The notes: generated from the sequence alone by a model not told the origin. Positions 1 through 11,669 are shown, counted from the stretch's first letter. The stretch is 64,000 nucleotides of DNA from Promethearchaeota archaeon (GCA_019058445.1 JAHPZA010000006.1:32001-96000), one strand, 5' to 3'. Numbers and translations: made by a program.

Positions 1-156
1 ATAATATATAATATATAACTTTCATATTTATCTAGAAACTAAAATTATAAGTAGAGGCGTTTTAAAGCTATTTTAGAATTTTGGGTAAGGTTTACGTGGG
101 AAAAATGTGGGAAAAAGTGGGTTAGTTTTCGGTTTTTAGTGAAATGAATGTGACAT

Positions 157-650
157 TTTTCAGTCTTCTGTATTCTGTTAAATCTCTAAGCGATCTAATA
201 GCCAAATTTAAATTGAAAAAATGGTTTAATTTTTAAAATCCATAAATGATGGGAAGAACGGGTTTAGGGTATTTTTTTGGACACTTCGACTTATTTTAAT
301 CATAAAAAAGCCTGTTTTCTCCCATCATTTTATTATTTTTCCGTAATGAGATGACTGAAAAGCGGGATTGGTAAGTTTTAAATAGTCATTTTTTTTGGTT
401 GTAATTGACAAATTTATGACTGAGATTGATCGCGTTAAGAGGGAATTCATACTTATTTCAAAAATGAATTCAAGATCGAAAGATCTTTTTGAAGAATATA
501 TTTAAAGAGGCATGTTGACGTACAGTCACTTGGAAATTGAAATATCTTTCGAGAGATCTTTTGTTTGTTCGAATTCTACTTTTTTTATCACCTGTCATAA
601 ATTGTCTTGTTCCATGTGAACAAAATCGGGACGATCTCATCAATCGTCCT
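157..650 (+). ncRNA. Candidate large structured non-coding RNA
   Basis: No long ORF. Stems 157-165/353-361, 244-265/308-330 (about 22 bp, G-U pairs on the + strand) and 407-420/594-606; hairpins 443-471, 607-623 and 628-650. Confidence 0.45.
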
Positions 651-656
651 TAAAAA

Positions 657-1151
657 ATGTTTTCCAGAGTAAAAGAAACGCGAAAATCGGAAGTAATCGC
701 CAGAGAAGGGCAACCAAGAGTAGATGTGGACAGACCTGAAGTTATTGGCGGGCCTGTGGCGAGTTCTTGGATAAGTAGCTTGTATTATGATTTAGAAAAT
801 GAAGTAGCTACTATGAATACATTCGATTTAGGAGAAAAAGGAATAGATTATCGCAGTTATGACTTTCCAGAATTTCCTCCCGCAGAATTTGATGATTGGT
901 GGCTTGCAATGAGTAAAGGCACATTTTATCATGAAAGGGTTAAGAATCTGGGATATCTAAAGCGTAGAATGTTATTGAAAAGGGTTTTGGCTAAAGTAAA
1001 GGCTAGAAAGTATAGAAGGCGAGAAAATAGGAAGTTTAAGTATTATTCCGACGCGTTTAAAGAAGGATTGCCAGTTAAACAAAAAGGAACGGGAAAAAGA
1101 GCAATTCCGTATTCGAAAAGGAAATTAAAGCAAAAAGGGTTATTTGAGTAA
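657..1151 (+). CDS. KTSC-domain protein with Lys/Arg-rich C-terminal tail
   Basis: PVASSWISSLYYD...Y.F..FP..EFD.W..A.SKG.FY...VK matches the KTSC pattern; basic tail follows. Confidence 0.7.
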   Translation: MFSRVKETRKSEVIAREGQPRVDVDRPEVIGGPVASSWISSLYYDLENEVATMNTFDLGEKGIDYRSYDFPEFPPAEFDDWWLAMSKGTFYHERVKNLGYLKRRMLLKRVLAKVKARKYRRRENRKFKYYSDAFKEGLPVKQKGTGKRAIPYSKRKLKQKGLFE

Positions 1152-1160
1152 AAAGTTAGA

Positions 1161-1324
1161 GCTTAGCCTTTTTCCGCAAGCATTCGAATTCAGGAAGCCA
1201 CGTTAACCATTTCCGTAAACCCATGAATTACGGTAATAGAACGCCCACGTTTAGCGTTCAAGAAAATTGAAAATAAATGAAAATTTTTCATGGGTTTTCT
1301 AAGATAAGAGAAGAGAAGCTAAGA
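1161..1324 (+). ncRNA. Candidate pseudoknotted RNA element
   Basis: Hairpin 1213-1233 whose loop region AAACCCATGAA (1217-1227) is perfectly complementary to TTCATGGGTTT (1287-1297); second hairpin 1239-1259. Confidence 0.4.
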
Positions 1325-1538
1325 ACGGAAATTATAACTATGTGAACTTCGCAAAATGATGATTTCACGCATATCTCATAGAATACGAGAAGATAACCCA
1401 GAAATAGCAAAAATAAAGAATTGAGTAAAAGAATCGTTTAAATCGTGTTTAAACGTTATTAGAAGGTTAGGTTACTTTTAATAGAAATTAACGGTTACAA
1501 ACGATTTAAAAATATAGGTATTAAGAGGGTATAAAAAT

Positions 1539-1697
1539 ATGAATAGAAGGTTAGAGAATAAAGAATTTGAAGGAGTAGCATTAGAGGGTAATAGCCTAGA
1601 GGATGGAATTATTAGAGAGTTTACGTTAAGTAATAGAATGGGCGTACTAAGAACATCCGGTGGGGATTTGGTAGAATATGAATATATTGTTAGATAA
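1539..1697 (+). CDS. Small hypothetical viral protein (52 aa, MNRRLENKEF...)
   Basis: Read by hand; purine-rich upstream (GAGGG); overlaps the next ORF. Confidence 0.5.
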   Translation: MNRRLENKEFEGVALEGNSLEDGIIREFTLSNRMGVLRTSGGDLVEYEYIVR

Positions 1698-1884
1698 AGA
1701 AGATATTGAAGAGTTATTGAAAATAGGTATTACTAAGGTTGAAGTCTTCGAAACTAGTGGTTTAGTAGAATGTATAGGTACAGGCGCAGGAAAGCCAATA
1801 ATTTTAGATTTGGAGAAAATGGCAGGTACGAGGCTTGATATACCATTAAAAGAGGATTTGACAGAATATGTGGGAGAGGCTTAG
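1678..1884 (+). CDS. Small hypothetical viral protein
   Basis: 68-aa ORF co-oriented with the packaging genes. Confidence 0.55.
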   Translation: MNILLDKEDIEELLKIGITKVEVFETSGLVECIGTGAGKPIILDLEKMAGTRLDIPLKEDLTEYVGEA

Positions 1885-2014
1885 AAAACTTGATCTGTGA
1901 GAGATTGGTTCTTACGGTTTTACCTTTTAGATCACCAACCTGCAAAATGCCACTAGAAGCGTTCTACTCCCCATTTATGAAAATCAACATAAACGGAAAC
2001 ATCCAAAAATAAAT

Positions 2015-3505
2015 ATGAGTACTAGACAAGTCCAAATCTTCAAGGTCTTAGAGGAAAACCCAGAATTAGCGGAACGTAGTTCAAATGCCGAACTTTACGC
2101 CTTATTACCTAAAGTTCCTAAAAGTTCTATCCGTTTTAACAAAAAGCTATTTAAGGAACGTCTAAAACGCAAAAACGAGGAGTTACAGCTCTTCATAGAA
2201 AACAACCAGAAGTTCATACAACCGCCCACACAGAACGCTTACAAATGGCAAATTGACGCGTTTAACAAGATCATGGAGCATTTCGCTACTAAGCTTCTTG
2301 TACCGCGAGATCACGGTAAATCCTACTTAATCTGTTGGTTAATCGAATACTTATTAGATTTGAAGGCTACAAGCGTTCTTTTACTAGGTTGGACAGATCG
2401 GCGAAAAGATATCGCAGAATGGGTTTATAGTTATTGTATTCGCAAGGATTTAATAGAATCCGTTAGAAGCGAATTTTGGTTTACACTTAAGAACGGCTCT
2501 AAATTCCGTTGTTTTCTTACTTCGGAAAAGGCTATTCTAGGCTTCCACGGGGACGAGAAGGGTATGGTTCTTATCATAGATGATCCTATTGACGATTCTT
2601 GGCGCACAGAACCGTGGAGAGAAGCCAAGCTCGAACGTCGCTATAAATCAACGATTTCAAACATAAATCCGTTAAAGATACTAATTAGCGGAACGCGGAA
2701 ATGTGAAGGTGACTTTTTCGATTTCATAGATGATACGTACGGAAATAGTGATTACGATTATTATGATTACACACGTAAGCCATACTATGAGGAGAACGGT
2801 TCTAAAAAGCTTCTATGCCCAGAGAGATGGACACTAGCTAAATTAGAGAAGAAACGCGTAGAAATAGGAGAATATTGGTATGCAGCGGAATGGATGCAAG
2901 ATCCTCATCCCATAGAGGCAGGGATCTTAACTAAACCGACGTTTGACATACACGCGGGTAAATCTGCTTATTCACATTGCGCAATAAGCGTGGATTCCGC
3001 TACAACGATAAAGAAAACGTCAGACTTTACTGCAATCATTACAATCTTAAAGAAGCGAAACACTTTAGAGTATTTTGTACTCAGGGCTTTAGTAGATCAT
3101 TTAGATTTCGAGGAAATTCTAAAATCGATAGAGAAGGCTTATAGATATGTTTTAGAGAAGTTTATAGATATCAATATAATTGTTCCAATTGAGAAAAATG
3201 CGGGAGGAAATTATTTAATTCAATCATCTAAGAGACGTGGTTATACATTTAGTTCACACATCATTCCTGTTCATAGTAGTAAAGCCAAATTCATTAGAAT
3301 TGAATCCGCATTAGAAGTACCGTTAAGAGAAGCTACACTTATATTTTCTGAAGGTTTAAAAAATACAGAATTAATAACGGAAATTCTAACATTCCCAAAT
3401 AGCCGTAAACTCGACGCGATAGATGGATTAGCCATAGGAATAAAAGAACTTGAAAATAAACATTCAGCATATACATTTGATATATTAAAAGCAAATGCAT
3501 TTTAA
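2015..3505 (+). CDS. terL: Terminase large subunit
   Basis: Walker A PRDHGKS, Walker B LIIDDP, coupling motif GTR; RNase H-like nuclease acidic residues (SVDSA, SDFTA, EKNAGG, DAIDG). Confidence 0.92.
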   Translation: MSTRQVQIFKVLEENPELAERSSNAELYALLPKVPKSSIRFNKKLFKERLKRKNEELQLFIENNQKFIQPPTQNAYKWQIDAFNKIMEHFATKLLVPRDHGKSYLICWLIEYLLDLKATSVLLLGWTDRRKDIAEWVYSYCIRKDLIESVRSEFWFTLKNGSKFRCFLTSEKAILGFHGDEKGMVLIIDDPIDDSWRTEPWREAKLERRYKSTISNINPLKILISGTRKCEGDFFDFIDDTYGNSDYDYYDYTRKPYYEENGSKKLLCPERWTLAKLEKKRVEIGEYWYAAEWMQDPHPIEAGILTKPTFDIHAGKSAYSHCAISVDSATTIKKTSDFTAIITILKKRNTLEYFVLRALVDHLDFEEILKSIEKAYRYVLEKFIDINIIVPIEKNAGGNYLIQSSKRRGYTFSSHIIPVHSSKAKFIRIESALEVPLREATLIFSEGLKNTELITEILTFPNSRKLDAIDGLAIGIKELENKHSAYTFDILKANAF

Positions 3506-3507
3506 AA

Positions 3508-3915
3508 ATGAAATTAAAAAATATTATTAATAAAATTAAGACTGGATATAAACGCTTTAGAGAGTACTTCTATAAAGGAGAAGTGGTGTTTATGACTAAT
3601 GATAAAGCCCATTTAGAGGCAATTTATACAAGTTTATCCGTTTTAGGAATAGATATTAAATATATAGGTAATAATGAATATATGTTTAAAATCTCCGCAA
3701 AAAAGGAAAAACATTATAAAAAGCTTGTAAATACAATTCTGGAAGATAAGGAGAGTTTAAAAGAGAAGTCTATGCGTTTATTTGATAAAGAACTTAAAAT
3801 AAAAGAATTAAATGAAAAATTAGCTTTTCTTAAAGGATTATTTGAATCAGAAAAAGCTATTATTTTTGAAGAGAATTTCAATGAAGATATGAAGGCTAAA
3901 TTAGATGCAATATAA
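3508..3915 (+). CDS. Hypothetical viral protein with C-terminal coiled coil
   Basis: Tightly packed between terL and the portal. Confidence 0.6.
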   Translation: MKLKNIINKIKTGYKRFREYFYKGEVVFMTNDKAHLEAIYTSLSVLGIDIKYIGNNEYMFKISAKKEKHYKKLVNTILEDKESLKEKSMRLFDKELKIKELNEKLAFLKGLFESEKAIIFEENFNEDMKAKLDAI

Positions 3916-5077
3916 AACAGTAAATAGAGGCAGTTTTGATCGGTATTATGAAAACCAATATGCACCTAGTTTACTAAAAGATTATTATACTTCCGTAAAT
4001 GACGCAGAAACTAGGGAAAAGAGATCGGGGATTGATCCTTTAGCTTCAGCATTAACTTTACGTGTCGGAAAGCTTTTAACCATGAATCCCCCTAAATTCT
4101 TGGATGAGAATAAAGAAGAGATCAAGAAAATAAGAGAAGAATGGGTTAAAAATGATTATGATAGCGTTTTCCGTGAAGCGATAATAAGTACACGTACTCA
4201 TGGGTTTTGCGTGACAGAAAAACTGAAAAATTCTTTCGCGGGGAAAAACTTTTTAGTACATAATCTGGCGAATGGAATTATACGTGTAAATTATGAAGAT
4301 CGTTTGAATATAAAGAGTTATGATATTCTCCCAAAAATGGAAGAAGGCGAGAGGATTTCGAGTTATGCTATTCCAAAACAACGTGAATTAATGGGAAAAA
4401 ATGCTTTTCACTATGAAATAGGAAGGAAAAAATATAACCAACAAGGCGAGAGTTCTTTAAAACCAATTTGGGCCCAATTAGTACGCGCAAATGAGATAAT
4501 TGACAGTATGGCGGAATATGACTCGCGTATCGGTAAGGGCTGGCTATATGTTAAAGTAGATCCCGCATTATATAATAAAGATATTTCAAAACTTAATACT
4601 GTCGTGCGAAAAATGAATCGTCGACGTTTTATGATTCTAAAAAGTACAAAAGAATCGCCCACGGATATTAATTTATTAACAACGACTAGCACGATTGATT
4701 TTTCTAGAGATCTAGAAACTTTAGTGGGTATTATAGCTTCACAGACTGGATTGCCTACTCGGTGGTTTCTTGGTTCACCAAAAGGATTCATTTCTTCCGC
4801 AAAAGAAGATAGATATCAAGTTTATGCAACTTTAAAAAGTATATTTGCGGAATATAAAGACTGGATTAGGGGATTTATTGAGAAATTCTATGAAAGTGGA
4901 GAAGCTATAAACAATAAGATTAAAGAAATTGAATTTGACGACGAAGGCGTTTTAGAAGAAATAGGAAGACAAATGGAAAACGGTGTAGCTTTTGATAACA
5001 ATCAAATACAAGAATCAGGTAAAACTGAGAAACAAATTAAATATTTAGCTAATAAAGAACAATTAAAGGAGAGCTAA
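3905..5077 (+). CDS. Portal protein (DUF1073-like)
   Basis: 390 aa after the terminase; IASQTGLPTRWFLGSPKG and R.HG motifs typical of this portal group. Confidence 0.8.
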   Translation: MQYKTVNRGSFDRYYENQYAPSLLKDYYTSVNDAETREKRSGIDPLASALTLRVGKLLTMNPPKFLDENKEEIKKIREEWVKNDYDSVFREAIISTRTHGFCVTEKLKNSFAGKNFLVHNLANGIIRVNYEDRLNIKSYDILPKMEEGERISSYAIPKQRELMGKNAFHYEIGRKKYNQQGESSLKPIWAQLVRANEIIDSMAEYDSRIGKGWLYVKVDPALYNKDISKLNTVVRKMNRRRFMILKSTKESPTDINLLTTTSTIDFSRDLETLVGIIASQTGLPTRWFLGSPKGFISSAKEDRYQVYATLKSIFAEYKDWIRGFIEKFYESGEAINNKIKEIEFDDEGVLEEIGRQMENGVAFDNNQIQESGKTEKQIKYLANKEQLKES

Positions 5078-5079
5078 TT

Positions 5080-5409
5080 ATGGAAGAATTAATTATAGAT
5101 GTAGAAAATATTGATGGAGAGAATTTAAAAATCGAACTTCCGTTTTTTAAGCCTTATATCGTTAATAATGAAGATTTTCTTAATATGGTTAGGTATTTAA
5201 AAAAGAAATTTGATTTAAATATTCCGTCTGAAGCGAATAAAGCTTTAAAACATTGGTCAGATTTAGAAGAATCGATGGTACAAGAATCTAAAGAATTTGT
5301 ACCATATGAAAGCGTTCATTTTAAGCATCATTTTAAACTAGAAGGGCTTAAACCTTTTGATATTGAGGAGTTTTATAAATCTCATTATAAAACTACTAGA
5401 GGATGGTAA
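5080..5409 (+). CDS. Hypothetical head-module protein
   Basis: GGAG SD-like site; lies between portal and protease. Confidence 0.6.
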   Translation: MEELIIDVENIDGENLKIELPFFKPYIVNNEDFLNMVRYLKKKFDLNIPSEANKALKHWSDLEESMVQESKEFVPYESVHFKHHFKLEGLKPFDIEEFYKSHYKTTRGW

Positions 5410-5410
5410 A

Positions 5411-6139
5411 ATGACTCATTTAGAGGATTACGATTATATAGGAACAGCATGCTTAGGTGACGTTAAATACGACGACGGTTTTGATAAATGGGATGATATC
5501 AAGAAAGTAATTAAAAATAAGAAAGAAATTATCATAAAACCCAATCATGAAAGTAAAGATATCGTCGGAAGGGTCAAGTTTTTTGAGCTGTGCGATAAAA
5601 ATAAAGAATTGAAAATAGGAATTAATAGAAAGGATTTATCCGTTGGTTTAGATGCTTTTAATGGAGTTTCTCCCCAATTTTTAACCAATGATAAAGGCAA
5701 AATAGTAGATATAACACATTTTGCGATTGGGAATAGTTTTAAACCGAAGTGTGATAAATCAGTATGTTATATTGAAAAAAATCGAGGTAAACAAAAGAAA
5801 ATGGATGATTTAGAAAAAAAAATTGAAGATTTAAAAGCTGAAAATAAAAAACTTAAAGCGAAGTATTTAGAACTAGAAAATAAGATGCTAGAGACTGATA
5901 ATAAAGCTTTTGAAGAATTCTTAAAAGAAAAAAACAATAATAATAAGTCTAAAGATAAGGATAAAGATGGGAGTAATCCTAAAGATAAGGATAAAGATAA
6001 AGATTTAGACTTAACACCAAATCAAGATATCGAGCAAGATATCGAGACAAAACCCAAAAATAAGTTTGAATATAAAGGATTTTTGGGAAATACAACTAAA
6101 AACACAGAAAATTTAATCGCAAAAAGAAAAATAAAATAA
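5411..6139 (+). CDS. Prohead protease/scaffold fusion (DUF2213-like)
   Basis: Start moved to ATG 5411. NHE...VG, GVSP and ITHFAI motifs, then a coiled coil and DK repeats; sits upstream of the MCP. Confidence 0.7.
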   Translation: MTHLEDYDYIGTACLGDVKYDDGFDKWDDIKKVIKNKKEIIIKPNHESKDIVGRVKFFELCDKNKELKIGINRKDLSVGLDAFNGVSPQFLTNDKGKIVDITHFAIGNSFKPKCDKSVCYIEKNRGKQKKMDDLEKKIEDLKAENKKLKAKYLELENKMLETDNKAFEEFLKEKNNNNKSKDKDKDGSNPKDKDKDKDLDLTPNQDIEQDIETKPKNKFEYKGFLGNTTKNTENLIAKRKIK

Positions 6140-6183
6140 ACTATTGATTGAAAATTAAAAATTAAATAAAAAGGTAAACGATA

Positions 6184-6636
6184 TTGGCAAATACTAAAAT
6201 TAGTGATATTGCAAATAGTGTAAGCTTAGGTATAAATCCAACAGAGAGCGTTAAAGCCTCAGAGGCTTCCTTAAAAGCAGGTATGGGCGTCTATCATTAT
6301 AACGAGACGGGCGTAAAAGCAATAGAGGGAAGTGCAGCATTGGTTAGCGGTTTTGCGGGAGTTTTAAAAGAACATTATTATTCTGGTCTTGATGCAACAT
6401 TAACTAATGGATCAGACTATGAGCTTATCAAAAGAGGTCCATGTGCTGTGTTTATTGATGATCCAGGTAAAACTTTTGGACCAGGTGTGGAGATCTGGGT
6501 AAGTGGTGCAACTGCTGGGAGTTTTGGTTTATTAACTGATCGTGACTTTATTGCTCTTTCGGGAGCTAGCGCAGTTGGTAAAACTATCGATACTATTAAC
6601 TCAGGCGATACCGTTGCTATGGTTAATCTTTATTAA
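6184..6636 (+). CDS. Head decoration/cement protein
   Basis: 150 aa, Gly/Ala-rich, beta-type sequence immediately before the MCP. Confidence 0.65.
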   Translation: MANTKISDIANSVSLGINPTESVKASEASLKAGMGVYHYNETGVKAIEGSAALVSGFAGVLKEHYYSGLDATLTNGSDYELIKRGPCAVFIDDPGKTFGPGVEIWVSGATAGSFGLLTDRDFIALSGASAVGKTIDTINSGDTVAMVNLY

Positions 6637-6648
6637 AGGTGATTTAAG

Positions 6649-7566
6649 ATGGTAAGATTAACAAGGCAAGAACTTAAAAGTATCGATGACATCGTTAAAC
6701 GTGTTCTTCGTGAGCCTCCAATCTTAGAGGCTTTCGGCATTAGACAAGTTGCTAATGGTAAAAGAGAACATATGTTTTTAAGCGCGTCAGATATGCCCAC
6801 ATCTAATATTGGTGCAGATTTCTCTTATGATGCTAGGAACTACCCTATGAGAATCCCTACTGGAACAAAACTAACATTTATAACCTTTCCTGTTCAAATT
6901 AAAAGAACGGATATTGATGCAAGCGAAAGTGCGGGAATTGAATCTCTCGCCGTAACGGCTGAAATTGAAGCAAACGCAGCAATAATGAAGGATGTTGAGG
7001 ATGTTGTTCTTCATGGCAATAATGCTCGCGGATCTAAAGGTATGTGCAATTATGATGGTTTAAATCATTATGGTGCAGATGCTAGTAAAGCCTTAACAAC
7101 TCATGGGAGTTTTTTTACCCAGTTGGAAGGGGCTATCTCACAGGTTCGCGAAAATCATATTAAACCCGGATCAGAAGGCTACGATCTAATAATTAGTCCT
7201 GGGATTTTTCCCGAATTAAGGAATAATTGGGTTACTGGGATTTATAATGAGTATAAGCAATTTAAGGAAACCTATACTGAAGGTCCAGCTCCAGTTATCG
7301 GTAATATTATCGAGACTGACGAGATCTGCACGGACAGTAATGGGAACGCTACAGGTTGCTTCACAGATACCCAAGGTTTCATTGTCGGGAAATTAGGACA
7401 GCCAAATAATTACATCGCTGAATCGTACGAACTTCACCGCGATTTGATTCCAGGAGAATTTGAAAGTGATGTAAATTATGCGCTACGTTGGGCTGGCGGA
7501 TTTATTCCGAAAGAACCGAAGGCTTTATGCTTAGTCACTGGGTTAACGACAACCACAGCATATTAA
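6649..7566 (+). CDS. Major capsid protein, HK97 fold (linocin/encapsulin-like group)
   Basis: 305 aa; EDVVLHG...KGMCN, YDLIISP and C-terminal PKALCLVTGL patterns; AGGTGA SD; gene context. Confidence 0.85.
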   Translation: MVRLTRQELKSIDDIVKRVLREPPILEAFGIRQVANGKREHMFLSASDMPTSNIGADFSYDARNYPMRIPTGTKLTFITFPVQIKRTDIDASESAGIESLAVTAEIEANAAIMKDVEDVVLHGNNARGSKGMCNYDGLNHYGADASKALTTHGSFFTQLEGAISQVRENHIKPGSEGYDLIISPGIFPELRNNWVTGIYNEYKQFKETYTEGPAPVIGNIIETDEICTDSNGNATGCFTDTQGFIVGKLGQPNNYIAESYELHRDLIPGEFESDVNYALRWAGGFIPKEPKALCLVTGLTTTTAY

Positions 7567-7586
7567 GTACGGCTAATTAGCTTAAA

Positions 7587-7627
7587 GATTGGAAAACGTG
7601 CGTGTTTTTCCGATCAAATTTTTTTTT
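7587..7627 (+). terminator. Hairpin plus T-run after the MCP gene
   Basis: GATTGGAAAAC...GTTTTTCCGATC stem followed by T9. Confidence 0.6.
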
Positions 7628-7654
7628 ATTTTAGAAAAATGAAAATTAAAACTT

Positions 7655-8002
7655 TTGTTGGTGATGTTAAAATTGGTGTATAGTAAATTAACGGATATAG
7701 AAAATAGGTTACCATTTGATATAAACGCAAATTCAATTCCATCGAGTAGTCAATTAACGGGCGTACAACTTCAATCAAACTTATTCATTAATGGATTTAT
7801 AGGGAGACCTTCTGGTTTAACGGAAAATACTGGAGCTTTAAGAATAATAGAGACCGATATTGCAGTAAATTATTGTATGTATTGGCATGATCCCGAATTC
7901 TCGCCTTTTTTTAGGTTTACACGCGATCAGAGGATGATTTTAGATAATTATCGTAGCGATCAATGTGTAAGATTGGGAAAATTAGGTTTTGATAGGGATT
8001 AA
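7655..8002 (+). CDS. Head-tail adaptor-like protein (true start probably near 7673)
   Basis: YS.L.DI N-terminus and helical pattern typical of gp15/gp6-type adaptors; position after the MCP. Confidence 0.6.
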   Translation: MLVMLKLVYSKLTDIENRLPFDINANSIPSSSQLTGVQLQSNLFINGFIGRPSGLTENTGALRIIETDIAVNYCMYWHDPEFSPFFRFTRDQRMILDNYRSDQCVRLGKLGFDRD

Positions 8003-8004
8003 AA

Positions 8005-8418
8005 ATGACTATCGCGGATATTAAGAGTGACGTTGTATCTCATTTAACAGATAATTGGAATACAGGCGTTTGTTCAATGCCAGAGATCCTCGAAGGAGAT
8101 CGCAAAACTAATTTGCGTGGCAACCAAATCAAATATCGGAATTCTATTAAAGTCTGGGATAATGGAATGGAGCCAGAATATGTAGATCCGCAACGCAAGA
8201 TTTGGGACGAGTATTACAACGTAAAATTAGAAATAGGATCACGCGAATCGGAAAGTAATTTAAAAAATATTTTATCCGAAACGCAACGCATTATAGGATT
8301 GACTGGGATATCGAATTACGATAACCAATTAATTTTGGGTGTAAAAAGGAAAGATTCTTCCGAAGAATATTACTCAGAATTTGATTTTATTGCAATAAAA
8401 TACAACCAATCCGTGTAA
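8005..8418 (+). CDS. Neck protein (tail-terminator/head-completion-like)
   Basis: 137 aa; alpha-beta pattern resembling gp17/gpU-like proteins; position. Confidence 0.55.
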   Translation: MTIADIKSDVVSHLTDNWNTGVCSMPEILEGDRKTNLRGNQIKYRNSIKVWDNGMEPEYVDPQRKIWDEYYNVKLEIGSRESESNLKNILSETQRIIGLTGISNYDNQLILGVKRKDSSEEYYSEFDFIAIKYNQSV

Positions 8419-8432
8419 AAAAAGCAAAAATG

Positions 8433-8455
8433 AAGAGGTGTCCGCTACACCTCTT
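8433..8455 (-). terminator. 9-bp hairpin, followed by T-runs on the minus strand
   Basis: AAGAGGTGT-ccgct-ACACCTCTT with A-runs to its left on the + strand. Confidence 0.5.
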
Positions 8456-8637
8456 AAAAACAATCCATAACAATCCAAGAACGGAACGGATTAAACTAGA
8501 AAAAGATTGACGGTTTTTCTTAAAATTGCTGTTCGCAAAACAAGGAAAAAACAAAAAGAAAAGTACTAGGTTAAGGTTAAATTAATCCGTTCTTCAAAAA
8601 TGAATAAAAAAATAAATATAAACAGGTGAAATGAAAT

Positions 8638-9504
8638 ATGGCAAAAATATATGCAATTCACTTAGGGTGGGTGTTAGTAGAATCTTATAATGTAGGTGAT
8701 TTAGGTGACAACGACGGTGCGCGAGGAATTTGTAATGACGGAACATTTTTTTACGTTGTTGATTATAATGGTTCAGCAGTATACAAATATCCTTCAGATT
8801 TTAGTTCATTAACGGATTCATATGATATAGGAGCATTGGGTGACAATGATAATCCTTGGGATATTTGTTGGGATGGAACTTATTTTTATGTCACTGATTT
8901 TATAGATGCAAAAGTCTATAAATATAATTCTGACTTCAGTACATTAGAAGACACTATTGATATAGGAGCATTGGGTGGTAATGACGAACCGTATGGTATT
9001 TGTTGGGATGGAACAAACTTCTTCATTACAGATTATGGGGAAGCGTACGTTTATAAATATCCTTCAGATTTTAGTTCATTAGAAGCAAGTTATGATATTG
9101 GCGCATTAGGTGGGAATGACGCACCTATGGGAATTGATTGGGATGGATCTGATTTTTATATATCTGACTATCAAGACGCTAAGGTTTATAAATACCCTTC
9201 AGACTTCTCAGAATTAACTACAAGTTTTAATTTAGCTAACTTAGGTGATAATACGCAACCAATGTGTATGTGTTGGGATGGCACATATTATTATGTAATT
9301 GAATATAAAGATACTGTTTATAAATATGCAGGGGAAATATTAGATATAACCTCCGATGTCAGCTACTGTAAAATCATCACAGAAGTCCGCCAAGTTCCTA
9401 AAGCTATTATAAAGGTACGAAATCAACCATTTGAAGCAGATGATCTCATTCGAATTGTCGGTAATTATACATCATTCAAAAACTGTATAAGGCATGGTAG
9501 TTAA
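8638..9504 (+). CDS. Five-repeat beta-propeller protein fused to a probable truncated tail-hub fragment
   Basis: Five ~45-aa repeats (IGALG.ND.P.GI.WDG..FY..DY..A.VYKY.SDFS), then LDITSDV...FEADDLIRIVG and an abrupt end. Confidence 0.7.
   Translation: MAKIYAIHLGWVLVESYNVGDLGDNDGARGICNDGTFFYVVDYNGSAVYKYPSDFSSLTDSYDIGALGDNDNPWDICWDGTYFYVTDFIDAKVYKYNSDFSTLEDTIDIGALGGNDEPYGICWDGTNFFITDYGEAYVYKYPSDFSSLEASYDIGALGGNDAPMGIDWDGSDFYISDYQDAKVYKYPSDFSELTTSFNLANLGDNTQPMCMCWDGTYYYVIEYKDTVYKYAGEILDITSDVSYCKIITEVRQVPKAIIKVRNQPFEADDLIRIVGNYTSFKNCIRHGS
8680..9330 (+). repeat. 135-bp tandem coding repeats (5 units)
   Basis: AAATATCCTTCAGATTTTAGTTCATTA recurs 270 bp apart; GATATAGGAGCATTGGGTG recurs 135 bp apart. 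Confidence 0.85.
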
Positions 9505-10183
9505 AAGAATTAGAAAAACTATTCTAAGTAAATGGGTAAATAAGCTTAACTTAAATAATATTCCAATTGAGTTTATTTATACAAACAATAATACATTTGA
9601 AAATGGTTTATGTAGTTATGATTTTAACGCAAAAAAGTATAGGATATTTATAACTCCAAATTCTGATAAAGAAACCTATATTCACGAACTAGGGCATATT
9701 TACTTCGATAAATTGACTAATGCTTTAAACTACTATCAAAAAAACCCTTTTAAGAATATTTATATTAGAAATAGCATTGAGGACGGTTTTGTTAATTATA
9801 ACCTAAGTAAATTTAATGAGTTTTATGATCTTATTAATGAAAATATAGGAAGATCAAAACCAATTAATTATTTGATCAAGAGTTTTAGTTTAAATAGACT
9901 TTTAGGTGGTTATATTTATGATTATCTTCATTGGAACTTCATATTAAAACCAAAAGATCGAAATTTACAAAAAGAAATAATCGATTATAATCTCAATATT
10001 TACCAAAAAGCTATACTCATAAGAGCAAAACAAGAAAAGATTAAATTCAATCAAAAAGACTTATTCAAATTAAGAATAATCTTAAATCAATTTCCTAAAA
10101 TTAAAGATCTTAGAGATTATAAGATCTTAAAAAAGTATGAAGATCAGGTTTTAGAAAAATTTGAAAAAATAAGAGATATTTAA
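9494..10183 (+). CDS. Putative zincin metallopeptidase (HExxH; ImmA/IrrE-like or related)
   Basis: YIHELGH followed by NSIED..VN. Confidence 0.6.
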   Translation: MVVKRIRKTILSKWVNKLNLNNIPIEFIYTNNNTFENGLCSYDFNAKKYRIFITPNSDKETYIHELGHIYFDKLTNALNYYQKNPFKNIYIRNSIEDGFVNYNLSKFNEFYDLINENIGRSKPINYLIKSFSLNRLLGGYIYDYLHWNFILKPKDRNLQKEIIDYNLNIYQKAILIRAKQEKIKFNQKDLFKLRIILNQFPKIKDLRDYKILKKYEDQVLEKFEKIRDI

Positions 10184-10231
10184 CCAAAAGACAAAAATCC
10201 AGATATCTAAAACCTTAAGATCTTCTTTAGA

Positions 10232-10624
10232 TTAATAAGAGGGTTTAAATCCCGTTATTTCATACACTAGGGATCGATGGAGAAATCCATCTTTCTCTAA
10301 ATTATTATTTCTTTTACTAAAATCATCAAAATGCGGAATAATTGATTTTCTTTTTTTGTATTGATTAAATAAGATCTTTTTTTGAGATTTCATGAATCTA
10401 TGCTCTTTTTCTTTCACATTTTTTTGATTTTTATCAGTCAAATCAAATATATCAAGTAAGAAATATAAAGAATCCATAGATAATTCATATTTTTCCGTTT
10501 TTTCGCTTTCTCTTTTACAATATAACCAAATACTAAAAACTGGCTTACGATTTTTATGAACTAACACATATTTCCATAAATATTTACAATTTCCTTTTTT
10601 TAGTTCTTTACTTATAATAAACAT
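10232..10624 (-). CDS. Hypothetical basic protein
   Basis: 130-aa ORF convergent with the peptidase. Confidence 0.5.
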   Translation of the reverse strand: MFIISKELKKGNCKYLWKYVLVHKNRKPVFSIWLYCKRESEKTEKYELSMDSLYFLLDIFDLTDKNQKNVKEKEHRFMKSQKKILFNQYKKRKSIIPHFDDFSKRNNNLEKDGFLHRSLVYEITGFKPSY

Positions 10625-10676
10625 TTTCTTTCTAATATTTTACCTGTTTTTTATCATTTTAATAAAATAAAAAAAT

Positions 10677-10698
10677 AGATGGGGATTATTCCCCATCT
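10677..10698 (-). terminator. Hairpin terminator for the upstream minus-strand genes
   Basis: AGATGGGGA-ttat-TCCCCATCT with a T-run after it on the minus strand. Confidence 0.6.
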
Positions 10699-10732
10699 TA
10701 AAACGTAGCAATAAATACGTTCAATGCGCGTT

Positions 10733-10885
10733 CTAACAATATACTAACGTTACTTTATTCTTTTTAATGAATCCTAATTTTTCTAATTTGTCAATAATTA
10801 CTTCTTCCGTTTTTTCTAAGCTTCGATATAGGTTTAAGAGACGTTCTATTTCTTCTTCTTTAGATGCTTCAATCTGCTGGCTCAT
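10733..10885 (-). CDS. Small protein (50 aa, MSQQIEASKEEEIERLL...)
   Basis: Read by hand; perfect GGAGGTGA SD; start overlaps the stop of the upstream ORF. Confidence 0.65.
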   Translation of the reverse strand: MSQQIEASKEEEIERLLNLYRSLEKTEEVIIDKLEKLGFIKKNKVTLVYC

Positions 10886-11163
10886 TTTATCACCTCCTCT
10901 ATTATTTTTTTAATTCCGTTAATTAGAATCATGATAATAACAAATATTTGAAACCCTATAAGCAAAAATAGAATTAAATCATATATTAAACTCCCGTGAA
11001 CAACTAAGCCACAGCAATTAACAAATCCCCCTTCACCTTTTTCATATGAATTTTTTATTGAGTTACTTACTAAATGTAATGTTAAAGCGAATACTATTAC
11101 AAATATAGCTAAAATGGTATTTACAATTAATAAAAATAATAGATTTTTTACTTTTTTTTCCAT
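10882..11163 (-). CDS. Two-TM small membrane protein
   Basis: Two hydrophobic segments; GGAG SD before ATG 11163; TTTATAAA box near 11200. Confidence 0.6.
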   Translation of the reverse strand: MEKKVKNLLFLLIVNTILAIFVIVFALTLHLVSNSIKNSYEKGEGGFVNCCGLVVHGSLIYDLILFLLIGFQIFVIIMILINGIKKIIEEVIK

Positions 11164-11260
11164 TTTTATCTCCAATACACGTCATCGTCGCAAGGTTTAT
11201 AAATCTTCTGACTACAAAACGGTACAAAAGTTTATAAGATTTAACAATAATATACAATTA

Positions 11261-11321
11261 GATCGGAAGAGTTCTTCTCATCTCCGAGAATTAAACTAAT
11301 TTTAGTTTAGCTCTTCCGATC
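11261..11321 (+). ncRNA. Candidate small three-way-junction RNA (or adapter-like artefact)
   Basis: 11-bp stem GATCGGAAGAG/CTCTTCCGATC enclosing two hairpins; BRE/TATA-like CAAAAG-TTTATAA about 25 nt upstream. Confidence 0.4.
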
Positions 11322-11462
11322 GCTATTAATACCTTTTCGATCCCAGATTAAAACTGAAAGAGATGTTTCACGATCTTACCGACAAAGCTTTTCAAAGTTT
11401 AAAATTTAAAGAGAATTTTTAGTTAACTTTTAAAAATTAAGAGTATAATAGAAGCTTTTTCT

Positions 11463-11669
11463 TTAAGTCAGGACTTCTAATATTTTTGTAAGAATTCGGG
11501 CCTTTCCACCTGTAGATTGGAGTAGAGTCTTTCCACAAACTAAACAGGTTACATCTGTTGCGCTACACCCGAATATTATTTGCTGATTTCCACAATTTAA
11601 GCATTTCACACGTAAGAATCGAGATTTTGGTTGGGGAATTAATTCTTTACCTTTTATATTTTTTGCCAT
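11463..11669 (-). CDS. rps27e: 30S ribosomal protein S27e
   Basis: [14 protein letters not shown]...C..CG..L...TGGKA. Confidence 0.97.

Follow-up and report, generated by a model that had tools for sequence, protein, structure and literature searches.

Few viruses of Asgard archaea are known and, to our knowledge, capsid-forming satellites that steal the tails of other viruses have so far been described only in bacteria. Cryptic prophages usually carry pseudogenes, damaged att sites or a damaged integrase. The verdandiviruses (proposed Verdandiviridae, Medvedeva et al.) are tailed Asgard viruses that are predicted to be lytic (bioRxiv 10.1101/2021.07.29.453957), and NMV2 ('Juurluvirus versutum'), a siphovirus with a genome of 19.6 kb, infects the Lokiarchaeon N. 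marumarumayae (bioRxiv 10.64898/2026.08.12.739948). Bacterial cf-PICIs are defined by an integrase and regulators, a primase-replicase, a TerS, TerL, portal, capsid and protease of their own, an adaptor or connector, and no tail or holin genes (PMC10085698).

Here we describe an integrated element of an Asgard archaeon that is partly contained in the window, the whole stretch of 64,000 nucleotides that was analysed (GCA_019058445.1 JAHPZA010000006.1:32001-96000). An initial annotation, made from the sequence of the window, had noticed a head and neck module with no tail genes behind it, and had offered as explanations a capsid-forming satellite, a gene transfer agent (GTA)-like element, a virus with a short tail or a provirus whose tail genes had been lost. 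Positions below are those of the window unless prefixed with C6.

Results

The element's own tyrosine recombinase inserted it between two genes, at a palindromic site in the chromosome of a Lokiarchaeial Asgard archaeon. It is a bounded insertion of 17,634 bp (~17.6 kb; whole span G000:C6:25721-43371), the left 6.3 kb of which precedes the window and the rest of which occupies 1..11371 (+). An exact 17-bp att duplication flanks it and is present at those two sites only in the genome: attL lies left of the window (C6:25721-25737), and its core is identical to that of attR (TGAAAGAGATGTTTCAC, 11355..11371). The empty site is found in a same-genus contig (L012), which joins C6:25740 straight to C6:43355, and the same-genus genome G003 has the syntenic site without the element. 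In the empty genome, attB is an imperfect palindrome around a 6-bp spacer, with a nucleoside phosphorylase gene on one side and the S27e-L44e operon on the other. Host genes begin at 11463 (S27e-like by sequence, L44e by Pfam), in line with the initial placement of host DNA after the element. No excision joint was visible in the contigs.

The integrase and the att repeat that had been expected left of the window are both there. The left arm carries, together at one end of the element, a regulator gene of RHH/NikA-like plus wHTH type (C6:26181-26669; Pfam) and an intact tyrosine integrase gene (C6:26666-27571; Pfam Phage_integrase, E 5.8e-20), as well as a TFB-like gene (C6:28581-29390; Pfam) and six small orphan ORFs before the window. 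An RHH-integrase cassette is common to many non-viral islands of the host family. No replication domain (primase or replicase) was detected in any element ORF by Pfam at E < 0.1, and no recognisable hijack function was found among the element ORFs, about 10 of which have no assignable function. A major capsid protein (MCP) relative occurs in 1 other of 400 Asgard genomes (G211) and in none of nine other same-genus genomes.

ORF calling placed all head and neck genes between 2015 and 8418 on the + strand, in the uninterrupted series from TerL to a second neck gene that the initial annotation had described. The gene for the large terminase subunit, TerL (2015..3505, +; PHROG 38, E 2.4e-39; Terminase_6C), is intact; its Walker A GKS, Walker B DD and nuclease acidic residues are conserved with the relatives, and the protein is 49% identical to TerL of L007. 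The portal gene (3905..5077, +), also intact, sits behind TerL, the position conserved for it, and viral contigs contain homologues of it. Its Pfam match (Phage_portal_3, E 1.4e-5) is below the curated cut-off; an exhaustive search places the protein with a small portal family, and it shares 44-52% identity with its counterparts in L006, L007 and L008. Two extra small genes within the head module have no counterpart in the close relatives, namely a coiled-coil ORF between TerL and the portal (o135; 3508..3915, +) and a small ORF after the portal (o109; 5080..5409, +). Just upstream of the packaging genes lies a gene for a KTSC-like small basic protein (657..1151, +; weak Pfam KTSC match, E 0.0035). 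A KTSC gene immediately precedes TerL in L007, and the protein weakly matches the product of the gene preceding the portal in G211. TerS was not recognised in the element, and this gene is the sole candidate for a DNA-recognition component that might substitute for it.

The gene initially labelled protease-scaffold (o260; 5357..6139, +; conserved part from ~5411) is tentatively assigned as a fusion of a prohead protease and a coiled-coil scaffold. An alignment of five sequences contains an invariant H64, S105 and H121 in addition to the coiled coil, and the PHROG head-maturation-protease matches are weak (E 0.03-0.08). The conserved gene directly upstream of MCP (o150; 6184..6636, +) is present in all relatives. 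Its earlier label, decoration, is kept as a candidate capsid accessory role (decoration or stabilisation) suggested by position, given that verdandiviruses have a capsid-stabilisation gene at the same position before MCP (bioRxiv 10.1101/2021.07.29.453957). The intact MCP gene (6649..7566, +) encodes a predicted HK97-fold major capsid protein, as judged from profile matches that are all below cut-offs (Linocin_M18, E 1e-4; PHROG 264 major head protein, E 4.9e-4; Major_capside, E 5e-3); five homologues are 46-61% identical to it.

The predicted structure of o115 (7655..8002, +) assigns it to the head-tail adaptors of HK97 gp6 / YqbG type. Phage neck adaptors account for all ten best PDB matches of the AlphaFold model (pLDDT 75.8, pTM 0.75), at Z 4.6-8.8 overall and 6.5-8.8 for nine of the ten, and the next, unrelated match has a Z of 2.7. 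The last gene shared with the tailed relatives is o137 (8005..8418, +), homologues of which occur in L006, L007, L008 and L019; in the tailed relatives, the tail tube gene comes directly next. Its structure model was unusable (pLDDT 44). In an Atlas feature search, all named families among the matches were tail terminators (score 0.92-0.93), which we treat as a lead only. The second neck gene of the initial annotation does exist, and it is possibly a tail terminator by its protein features. All seven head and neck genes are full-length compared with their homologues in three metagenomic relatives, and from TerL to o137 the module has the same gene order as in L006, L007 and L008, with amino-acid identities of 27-61%.

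Neither the element nor the 4.6-Mb assembly yielded a homologue of a tail tube, tape-measure or hub protein, so that the initial report of a missing major tail protein and tape measure extends to the genome. Tail genes were also looked for left of the window, where they would have spoken against a tail-less element, and none were found. PF18906 is absent from the genome, and a search of this genome and of 135 genomes of the host family revealed no helper-type tube gene. Every relative with downstream sequence has tail genes right after the neck genes. In L006, L007, L019/L024 and L026, the neck is followed by a tube gene (~308 aa; recognised by Pfam Phage_tube_2 in L006 and L019), a pair of small chaperone-like genes and a tape measure gene (in L019, PHROG E 1.8e-14), and downstream of the latter by genes for a distal tail protein and for large tip proteins. 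L019 and L024 represent a single complete tailed genome of 19.4 kb in two circularly permuted forms. The Asgard genome G211, which has a related MCP, carries other tail-like genes after the neck, including one for a 1275-aa beta-helix protein. A search of 5.8 billion proteins, IMG/VR, JGI contigs and GTDB genomes for the same tail-less gene set in an independent genome, as had been proposed, yielded no second case.

At the position of the tube gene, the element has a non-coding spacer of 220 nt with stops in all frames (8419..8637), the gap recorded initially; in L007, the tube gene begins 3 nt past the o137 homologue. The spacer contains a hairpin with an 8-bp stem (8432-8454) and an A-rich region with GGTGA ahead of the next ATG. 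Breakpoint marks, i.e. a truncated gene or a fused ORF, were not found at the gap. The following gene (8638..9504, +) encodes a five-blade beta-propeller protein of 288 aa with five 135-nt (45-aa) repeats. Two proteins of the tailed-virus contig L023 align with it at 49-57% identity, one of 176 aa and, at its N-terminus, one of 781 aa, the remainder of the latter matching tail-tip proteins of L006 and L019; one relative has a Vgb_lyase-type propeller match. By sequence comparison, the propeller protein is related to tail-tip or fibre proteins. It had been described as a truncated hub fragment; homology to a domain of a larger tail-tip protein agrees with this, but the ORF is complete and has its own ribosome-binding site. 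An orphan ORF with a HELGH motif follows (o229; 9494..10183, +), and two leftward orphans, o130 (10232-10624, -) and the membrane-like o97 (10882-11175, -), lie at the right end of the element.

Discussion

The most likely reading, to which we give a probability of about 0.5, is that the element is a verdandivirus-like temperate provirus that recently lost its tail genes by deletion or replacement and is now defective; a capsid-forming satellite is ranked as less likely. The starting point would have been a temperate, HK97-type, small siphovirus-like virus of a Lokiarchaeial Asgard archaeon. A central tail block of ~5-7 kb, comprising the tube, two chaperones, the tape measure, the distal tail protein and the hub, would later have been lost through an internal deletion or a replacement, with breakpoints in intergenic DNA after o137 and before the propeller-type tail-tip gene. 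The remaining genes could still allow excision, DNA packaging and the assembly of DNA-filled heads that bear an adaptor, but no tail could be built, and alone the element would be a defective (cryptic) provirus.

Deletion is indicated because all relatives with downstream sequence are tailed at this position, and an internal one is favoured because the tail-related o137 and propeller genes flank the missing block. The initial annotation had leaned the same way, and the tails of the relatives count against the more exotic readings that it had listed beside deletion. Set against a loss of the tail, no damage is seen in the seven head and neck genes, in the integrase or in either att core, and the gap is clean, o137 keeping its stop codon and hairpin and the propeller gene having its own start. 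The head proteins do not evolve faster than those of the tailed relatives, MCP showing a mild, non-significant excess. As a rough estimate based on assumed rates, ~6.4 kb of coding DNA would receive a disabling mutation after ~0.3% neutral divergence, and a deletion must therefore have been very recent if the tail was lost. The head genes would then be intact because the loss is recent, and not necessarily because of continuing selection.

Since everything that remains is intact, genes and att sites as well as the motifs of TerL, a satellite is a possible, if less probable, explanation. The element would then be an archaeal analogue of cf-PICIs that excises, uses its own terminase to fill small capsids of its own with its 17.6-kb genome, and takes tails from a co-infecting related tailed virus; we put forward only tentatively that a mobile island of a Lokiarchaeon has acquired the head module of a verdandivirus-like virus, which would make it the first capsid-forming satellite of an archaeal virus. 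The terminator-like and propeller proteins could then dock, adapt or retarget borrowed tails. The gene set (integrase, regulators, TerL, portal, capsid and adaptor, but neither tube nor tape measure) fits cf-PICI logic, all genes and both att sites are intact with no acceleration of rates, and a genome of 17.6 kb would have room in a capsid type that accommodates 19.4 kb in one of the tailed relatives. The RHH-integrase cassette, which many non-viral islands of the host family also carry, recalls the left arm of cf-PICIs, itself island-like, and the two extra small genes inside the head module may also be cited in favour. However, there is one instance and no conserved tail-less family in any searched collection, all relatives are complete tailed viruses, and neither the genome nor the host family yielded a candidate helper with a matching tube type. 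A primase-replicase or recognisable hijack function was likewise not found, and tail-related genes (propeller, o137) persist that cf-PICIs by definition exclude.

A complete autonomous virus with unconventional adsorption, in which a very short tail is built from the propeller, o229, o130, o97 or left-arm orphans, or these attach directly to the neck, is improbable. The propeller is of a receptor-binding, tail-tip type and is placed after the neck genes, and some 10 ORFs have no assignable function; but the orthologues of the neck genes belong to viruses with a tube and a tape measure, no orphan is big enough for a podovirus-type nozzle, and the layout is absent from all relatives. The short-tailed virus proposed initially has no support. 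Less probable still in our estimation would be a domesticated, GTA-like or otherwise beneficial capsid module retained by the host, which intact head genes with no tail might suggest. An integrase of its own and perfect att repeats belong to the element, the syntenic site in G003 is empty, and an MCP relative is missing from nine other same-genus genomes and present in 1 among 400 Asgard genomes; this patchy distribution means that there is no vertical conservation, and the GTA-like proposal is thus largely refuted, the element looking mobile instead. Least probable of all is a chimeric or collapsed contig minus its tail region. Nothing specific points to one beyond a metagenome-type assembly in 10 contigs, and a separate Logan assembly, made from the run that is probably the source, has one 28.8-kb contig over attL, element and attR at an even depth of 24.6, with identical fragments, including the attL junction, in other samples of the same study, although these assemblies and samples are not fully independent of the source data. 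No sign of the chimera considered initially was seen.

Bacterial cf-PICIs such as EcCIEDL933 (PMC10085698) resemble the element in size and in having an integrase, regulators, TerL, portal, capsid and head-tail adaptor but no tube or tape measure. The present element, on the other hand, has an archaeal host and no sequence relationship to them, yielded no primase-replicase and no recognised TerS or HNH, keeps tail-related genes, and is a single instance known from its genes, with no known helper. If the tail-less state is functional, such satellites would extend to the archaeal relatives of eukaryotes. Like cryptic prophages with an internal tail deletion, the element lacks a block exactly where its relatives have tail genes and has tail-related genes on both sides; unlike most of them, it is intact throughout the rest. 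If only a fresh deletion is involved, it is an ordinary cryptic provirus, which would still document a possible origin of satellites from small tailed viruses.

Among described viruses, NMV2 differs from the element in being tailed, in lacking an integrase and in having a primase-helicase. The 19.4-19.6-kb circular genome L019/L024, from a microbial-mat metagenome, encodes a primase-helicase, TerL, portal, MCP, tube and tape measure and fits the published NMV2 and its 3.8-kb NMV2S part, as compared by description; its portal and MCP are 33% and 30% identical to those of the element, a distant relationship. No match to the element MCP was found in the 'phages' collection. The verdandiviruses share with the element a Lokiarchaeia host, a small genome (19.5-20.6 kb when complete; bioRxiv 10.1101/2021.07.29.453957), an HK97 MCP, TerL and portal barely recognisable by sequence, an accessory gene directly before MCP, arrays of small orphan genes and no replication genes. 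The metagenomic relatives of the element have a verdandivirus-type tail, that of a siphovirus with a short tape measure and large tip proteins (bioRxiv 10.1101/2021.07.29.453957). In contrast to verdandiviruses, the element has an integrase and att sites but no major tail protein, tape measure or hub. By head layout and lack of replication genes, it is verdandivirus-like as a general type, a likeness of description. It represents a precisely delimited, integrase-bearing provirus of this general type in a Lokiarchaeon; with its defined att site and matching empty site, it is of use in assigning viruses to hosts and may also supply an integration cassette for genetic tools.

Results

Host genome and integration site

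The window corresponds to positions 32001-96000 of contig C6 in the Lokiarchaeial assembly G000 (4.6 Mb, 10 contigs, 92.6% complete). The element is flanked by archaeal informational genes (EF-1alpha, aIF2-alpha, primase, GINS, PCNA, TFS, and ribosomal proteins L44e, S7 and S12), and the eukaryotic Actin Pfam model matches six genes of the assembly (best E 4e-132) as against 0 of 14 control prokaryote genomes; together, these genes identify the host as an Asgard archaeon at the sequence level. Two of the six actin-family genes (G000:C10:653495-654577 and C9:593898-595019) contain in-frame TAA stops. The assembly has no detectable CRISPR array.

A contig (L012) of the congeneric genome G003 aligns collinearly with both host flanks of the element (84-88% nucleotide identity), and in it the equivalents of C6:25740 and C6:43355 abut directly. 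An exact 17-bp direct repeat, TGAAAGAGATGTTTCAC, is found at both junctions and nowhere else in the genome. Because the flanks are joined directly in L012 and the repeat is exact at both junctions, the element is delimited by sequence comparison as a 17,634-bp insertion (C6:25721-43371; attR at window 11355-11371). The two att cores are identical. In the empty genome, attB forms an imperfect palindrome with a 6-bp spacer at its center. It lies between convergent genes, and integration therefore disrupted no gene; no tRNA gene lies near the site. No attB/attP excision joint was seen in Logan contigs of the sequencing runs, and the joints listed, with sides of only 20-23 letters, were taken as spurious.

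The initial annotation had pointed to the DNA left of the window as the place where an integrase, an att repeat or tail genes might lie. The 6.3-kb left arm encodes a protein with RHH/NikA-like and wHTH parts, a tyrosine integrase of 301 aa (Pfam E 5.8e-20), a TFB-like protein and small orphans; integrase and repeat are thus both present, and the arm contains neither a tail gene nor a recognizable replication gene. Copies of the RHH(NikA-like)-integrase cassette (G000:C6:26181-27571) with 45-56% identity occur in 17 of 134 host-family genomes (loci L043, L044, L045 and L046). Several copies of the cassette often lie 10-12 kb apart, and the elements that carry them possess none of the head genes; in G246, a genome of another genus, one such element of ~10 kb adjoins the same S27e-L44e operon. 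This pattern suggests a family of site-specific islands that is widespread in Lokiarchaeia.

Contigs from further sediment samples of the study are identical to parts of the element up to points of divergence; two such points, in the early region, are common to two samples (L005:5232 and 5977, equivalent to window -1768 and -1023), and a third, in one sample, is at L005:15618 (window 8618), 20 nt before the propeller start. No source sequence was found for these loose ends. The diverging contigs may stem from sister elements of mosaic make-up, one of which possibly differs in what follows the neck genes.

Head and neck genes

All ORFs named in the initial annotation are present on the + strand, at the coordinates given there. 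The assignment of TerL (2015-3505) is secure (PHROG 38, E 2.4e-39), the Walker A, Walker B and nuclease acidic residues being conserved, and it is the sole PHROG 38 TerL in G000. The portal (3905-5077) and MCP (6649-7566) give only sub-threshold family matches; they stand in the canonical gene order and have homologues in virus-like contigs. For o260 (5357-6139), the proposed protease-scaffold function is plausible but tentative, with invariant His64, Ser105 and His121 ahead of a coiled coil, and weak matches to protease PHROGs. The conserved o150 (6184-6636) lies directly upstream of the MCP in every relative, and its candidate role is drawn only from this position.

The AlphaFold model of o115 (7655-8002; pLDDT 75.8) has phage head-tail adaptors as its ten best PDB matches, over residues 7-101 (Z 4.6-8.8, nine of them at 6.5-8.8). 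Among these are HK97 gp6, B. subtilis YqbG, the Bxb1 and Douge connectors, the Mu neck subunit, the SaPI1 neck, P74-26, phiXacJX1 and NF5; the next unrelated match falls to Z 2.7. The model of o137 (8005-8418) is unusable (pLDDT 44). Every named family near this protein in an Atlas feature-based search is a tail terminator family (lambda gpU, Phage_tail_terminator_5, Phage_tail_terminator_7 and DUF3168), and we treat it as a terminator-like candidate, a lead rather than a test. Profile searches of o115, o137, o150 and o260 against PDB sequences gave no match, and hhalign detected no similarity between the element's neck families and the neck genes of G211, another Asgard genome with a related provirus. 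In the related contig L006 (3704-4112), a frameshift or sequencing error divides the o137 homologue into two ORFs, of 82 and 71 aa.

Two tightly packed head-module genes, o135 (coiled coil, 3508-3915) and o109 (5080-5409), are without counterpart in the closest tailed relatives. A KTSC-like small basic protein is encoded upstream of the packaging genes at window 657-1151 and at L007:281-637, and a weak match to it is found in G211 between TerL and the portal, i.e. in the gene before the portal. No classical small terminase is recognizable, and the KTSC-like protein may be the DNA-recognition partner of TerL in this virus group.

Tail modules of the relatives

The lineage is rare. Five MCP homologues were found among 5.8 billion proteins, and six portals below E 1e-30, including the query, when 1.8 billion cluster representatives were searched exhaustively; among 400 Asgard genomes, one other (G211) has a match. 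Scans with an MCP alignment retrieved nothing from GTDB, nothing close from IMG/VR and only one 2-kb contig from JGI, and GenBank phages gave no MCP match; a nine-sequence MCP alignment proved too diverse for scanning. From GTDB, the portal scan retrieved G211, a 3.3-kb contig and nothing else. Protein identity to the nearest relatives is 40-60%, and synonymous sites are saturated. FylV1, a 16-kb provirus of Ca. L. ossiferum B36, was rejected as a relative, its capsid being of the double jelly-roll type.

Three related metagenomic contigs, L006, L007 and L008, are collinear with the element from TerL to o137 (27-61% amino-acid identity), the L008 type being the closest relative, with an MCP 61% identical. 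In L006 and L007, the neck genes are followed by a 309-aa tube protein (Pfam Phage_tube_2 in L006), two small chaperone-like genes, a 479-aa tape-measure-like protein, a 132-aa protein, proteins of 299 and 484 aa, and a fibre-like protein. The tail genes of L019 (372-aa tape measure, PHROG E 1.8e-14) and L026 have the same order; in the G211 provirus, three small genes and then proteins of 410, 156 and 1275 aa (the last a beta-helix) follow the neck. A tail module thus stands directly after the neck genes in all five informative relatives, the outcome that the initial annotation had associated with a simple deletion; several portal relatives are on contigs that end too early to show a tail region. 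L019 (a microbial-mat contig from ENA, 19,625 bp) and L024 (an IMG/VR UViG, 19,447 bp), which are independent assemblies, are 100% identical circular permutations of each other, and a complete tailed genome of this clade is therefore ~19.4 kb. It encodes a Prim-Pol/DUF5906 primase-helicase.

The absence of a tail tube and tape measure from the element, noted initially, extends to the whole genome: the relatives' tail proteins gave no tblastn match below E 0.1 in the G000 assembly, and Phage_tube_2 had none. Nor did a tube profile match anything in 135 host-family genomes.

The region downstream of the neck

A non-coding stretch of 219 bases follows o137; all its frames contain stops, and it includes a hairpin with an 8-bp stem. 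Next come the propeller gene (8638-9504; 288 aa, five 45-aa blades), o229 (9494-10183; HELGH motif), two leftward orphans and the host S27e-L44e operon. The closest homologues of the propeller are both encoded in the related contig L023, after a tape-measure-like gene and a 141-aa gene: one is a protein of 176 aa, the other the first 175 residues of a 781-aa protein. Since the tip proteins of L006 (299 and 484 aa) and an 839-aa protein of L019 match the remainder of this 781-aa protein, sequence homology identifies the propeller as a tail-tip protein module of these viruses. The view of this gene as a truncated hub-like fragment therefore holds for its tail-tip relation, being homologous to the N-terminus of the L023 tip protein, but not for truncation, as it is a stand-alone, complete ORF with its own ribosome-binding site. 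Atlas searches gave no usable match for the propeller and at most weak virus-like matches for o229, which has no sequence homologue.

A 36-nt motif occurs in two copies (75% identical), one in each of the element's two large non-coding gaps, at 434-469 before the KTSC gene and at 8570-8605 before the propeller. It may be a shared promoter element, and could possibly have been a substrate for the recombination that removed a tail block.

Discussion

We favor the reading that the element is a recently tail-deleted, defective verdandivirus-like provirus, and give it a probability of about one half; loss of tail genes was among the origins first proposed for it. The missing block is bordered by tail-related genes, the terminator-like o137 to its left and the propeller, of tip type, to its right. 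Such borders, together with the tailed state of all five relatives, are the pattern expected from an internal deletion or replacement of about 5-7 kb. A less probable, though still credible, reading is an archaeal capsid-forming satellite, which if true would be the first for archaea. In its favor, the remaining genes are all intact (the integrase and seven conserved head/neck genes are full-length, the att cores identical and the TerL motifs conserved), and in relative-rate comparisons with an outgroup the portal, TerL, o150 and o260 are not accelerated; a mild MCP excess (unique changes 29 vs 18, 30 vs 17 and 21 vs 12) is not significant. On a rough estimate with assumed rates, a coding block of this kind takes a disabling mutation after ~0.3% neutral divergence, while the flanks differ from those of G003 by 12-16%, which leaves a very recent loss or maintenance of the genes as the two options. 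Two further points agree with a satellite: the element's size would fit a capsid of the relatives' type, and its RHH-integrase cassette is common to many head-less islands of the host family (45-56% identity). A satellite, however, is represented by a single instance, the same tail-less gene set having been found in no independent genome of the collections searched, and neither a replicase in the element, nor a helper, nor evidence of excision was found.

The rest of the probability is shared by an autonomous virus with an unrecognized tail, a domesticated module and an artefact. GTA-like domestication of the capsid module, also raised initially, is contradicted by the integrase, the att repeats and the patchy distribution. 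The probable source run was also assembled separately, and that assembly covers the element from end to end at even depth, which makes a chimeric contig or other assembly artefact unlikely. The conservative reading of the element is an ordinary one, and the finding is real and well delimited.

Compared by description only, the layout of the L019/L024 genome fits that of the verdandiviruses (bioRxiv 10.1101/2021.07.29.453957), and the genome fits the published account of NMV2 and its NMV2S part; NMV2 is a siphovirus seen on a Lokiarchaeon (bioRxiv 10.64898/2026.08.12.739948). The cassette that the element shares with islands recalls the left arm, likewise island-like, of cf-PICIs, bacterial capsid-forming satellites that take their tails from a helper phage. 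Whereas cf-PICIs, from which tail genes are excluded by definition (PMC10085698), have a clean head-only set, tail-related genes remain in the element.
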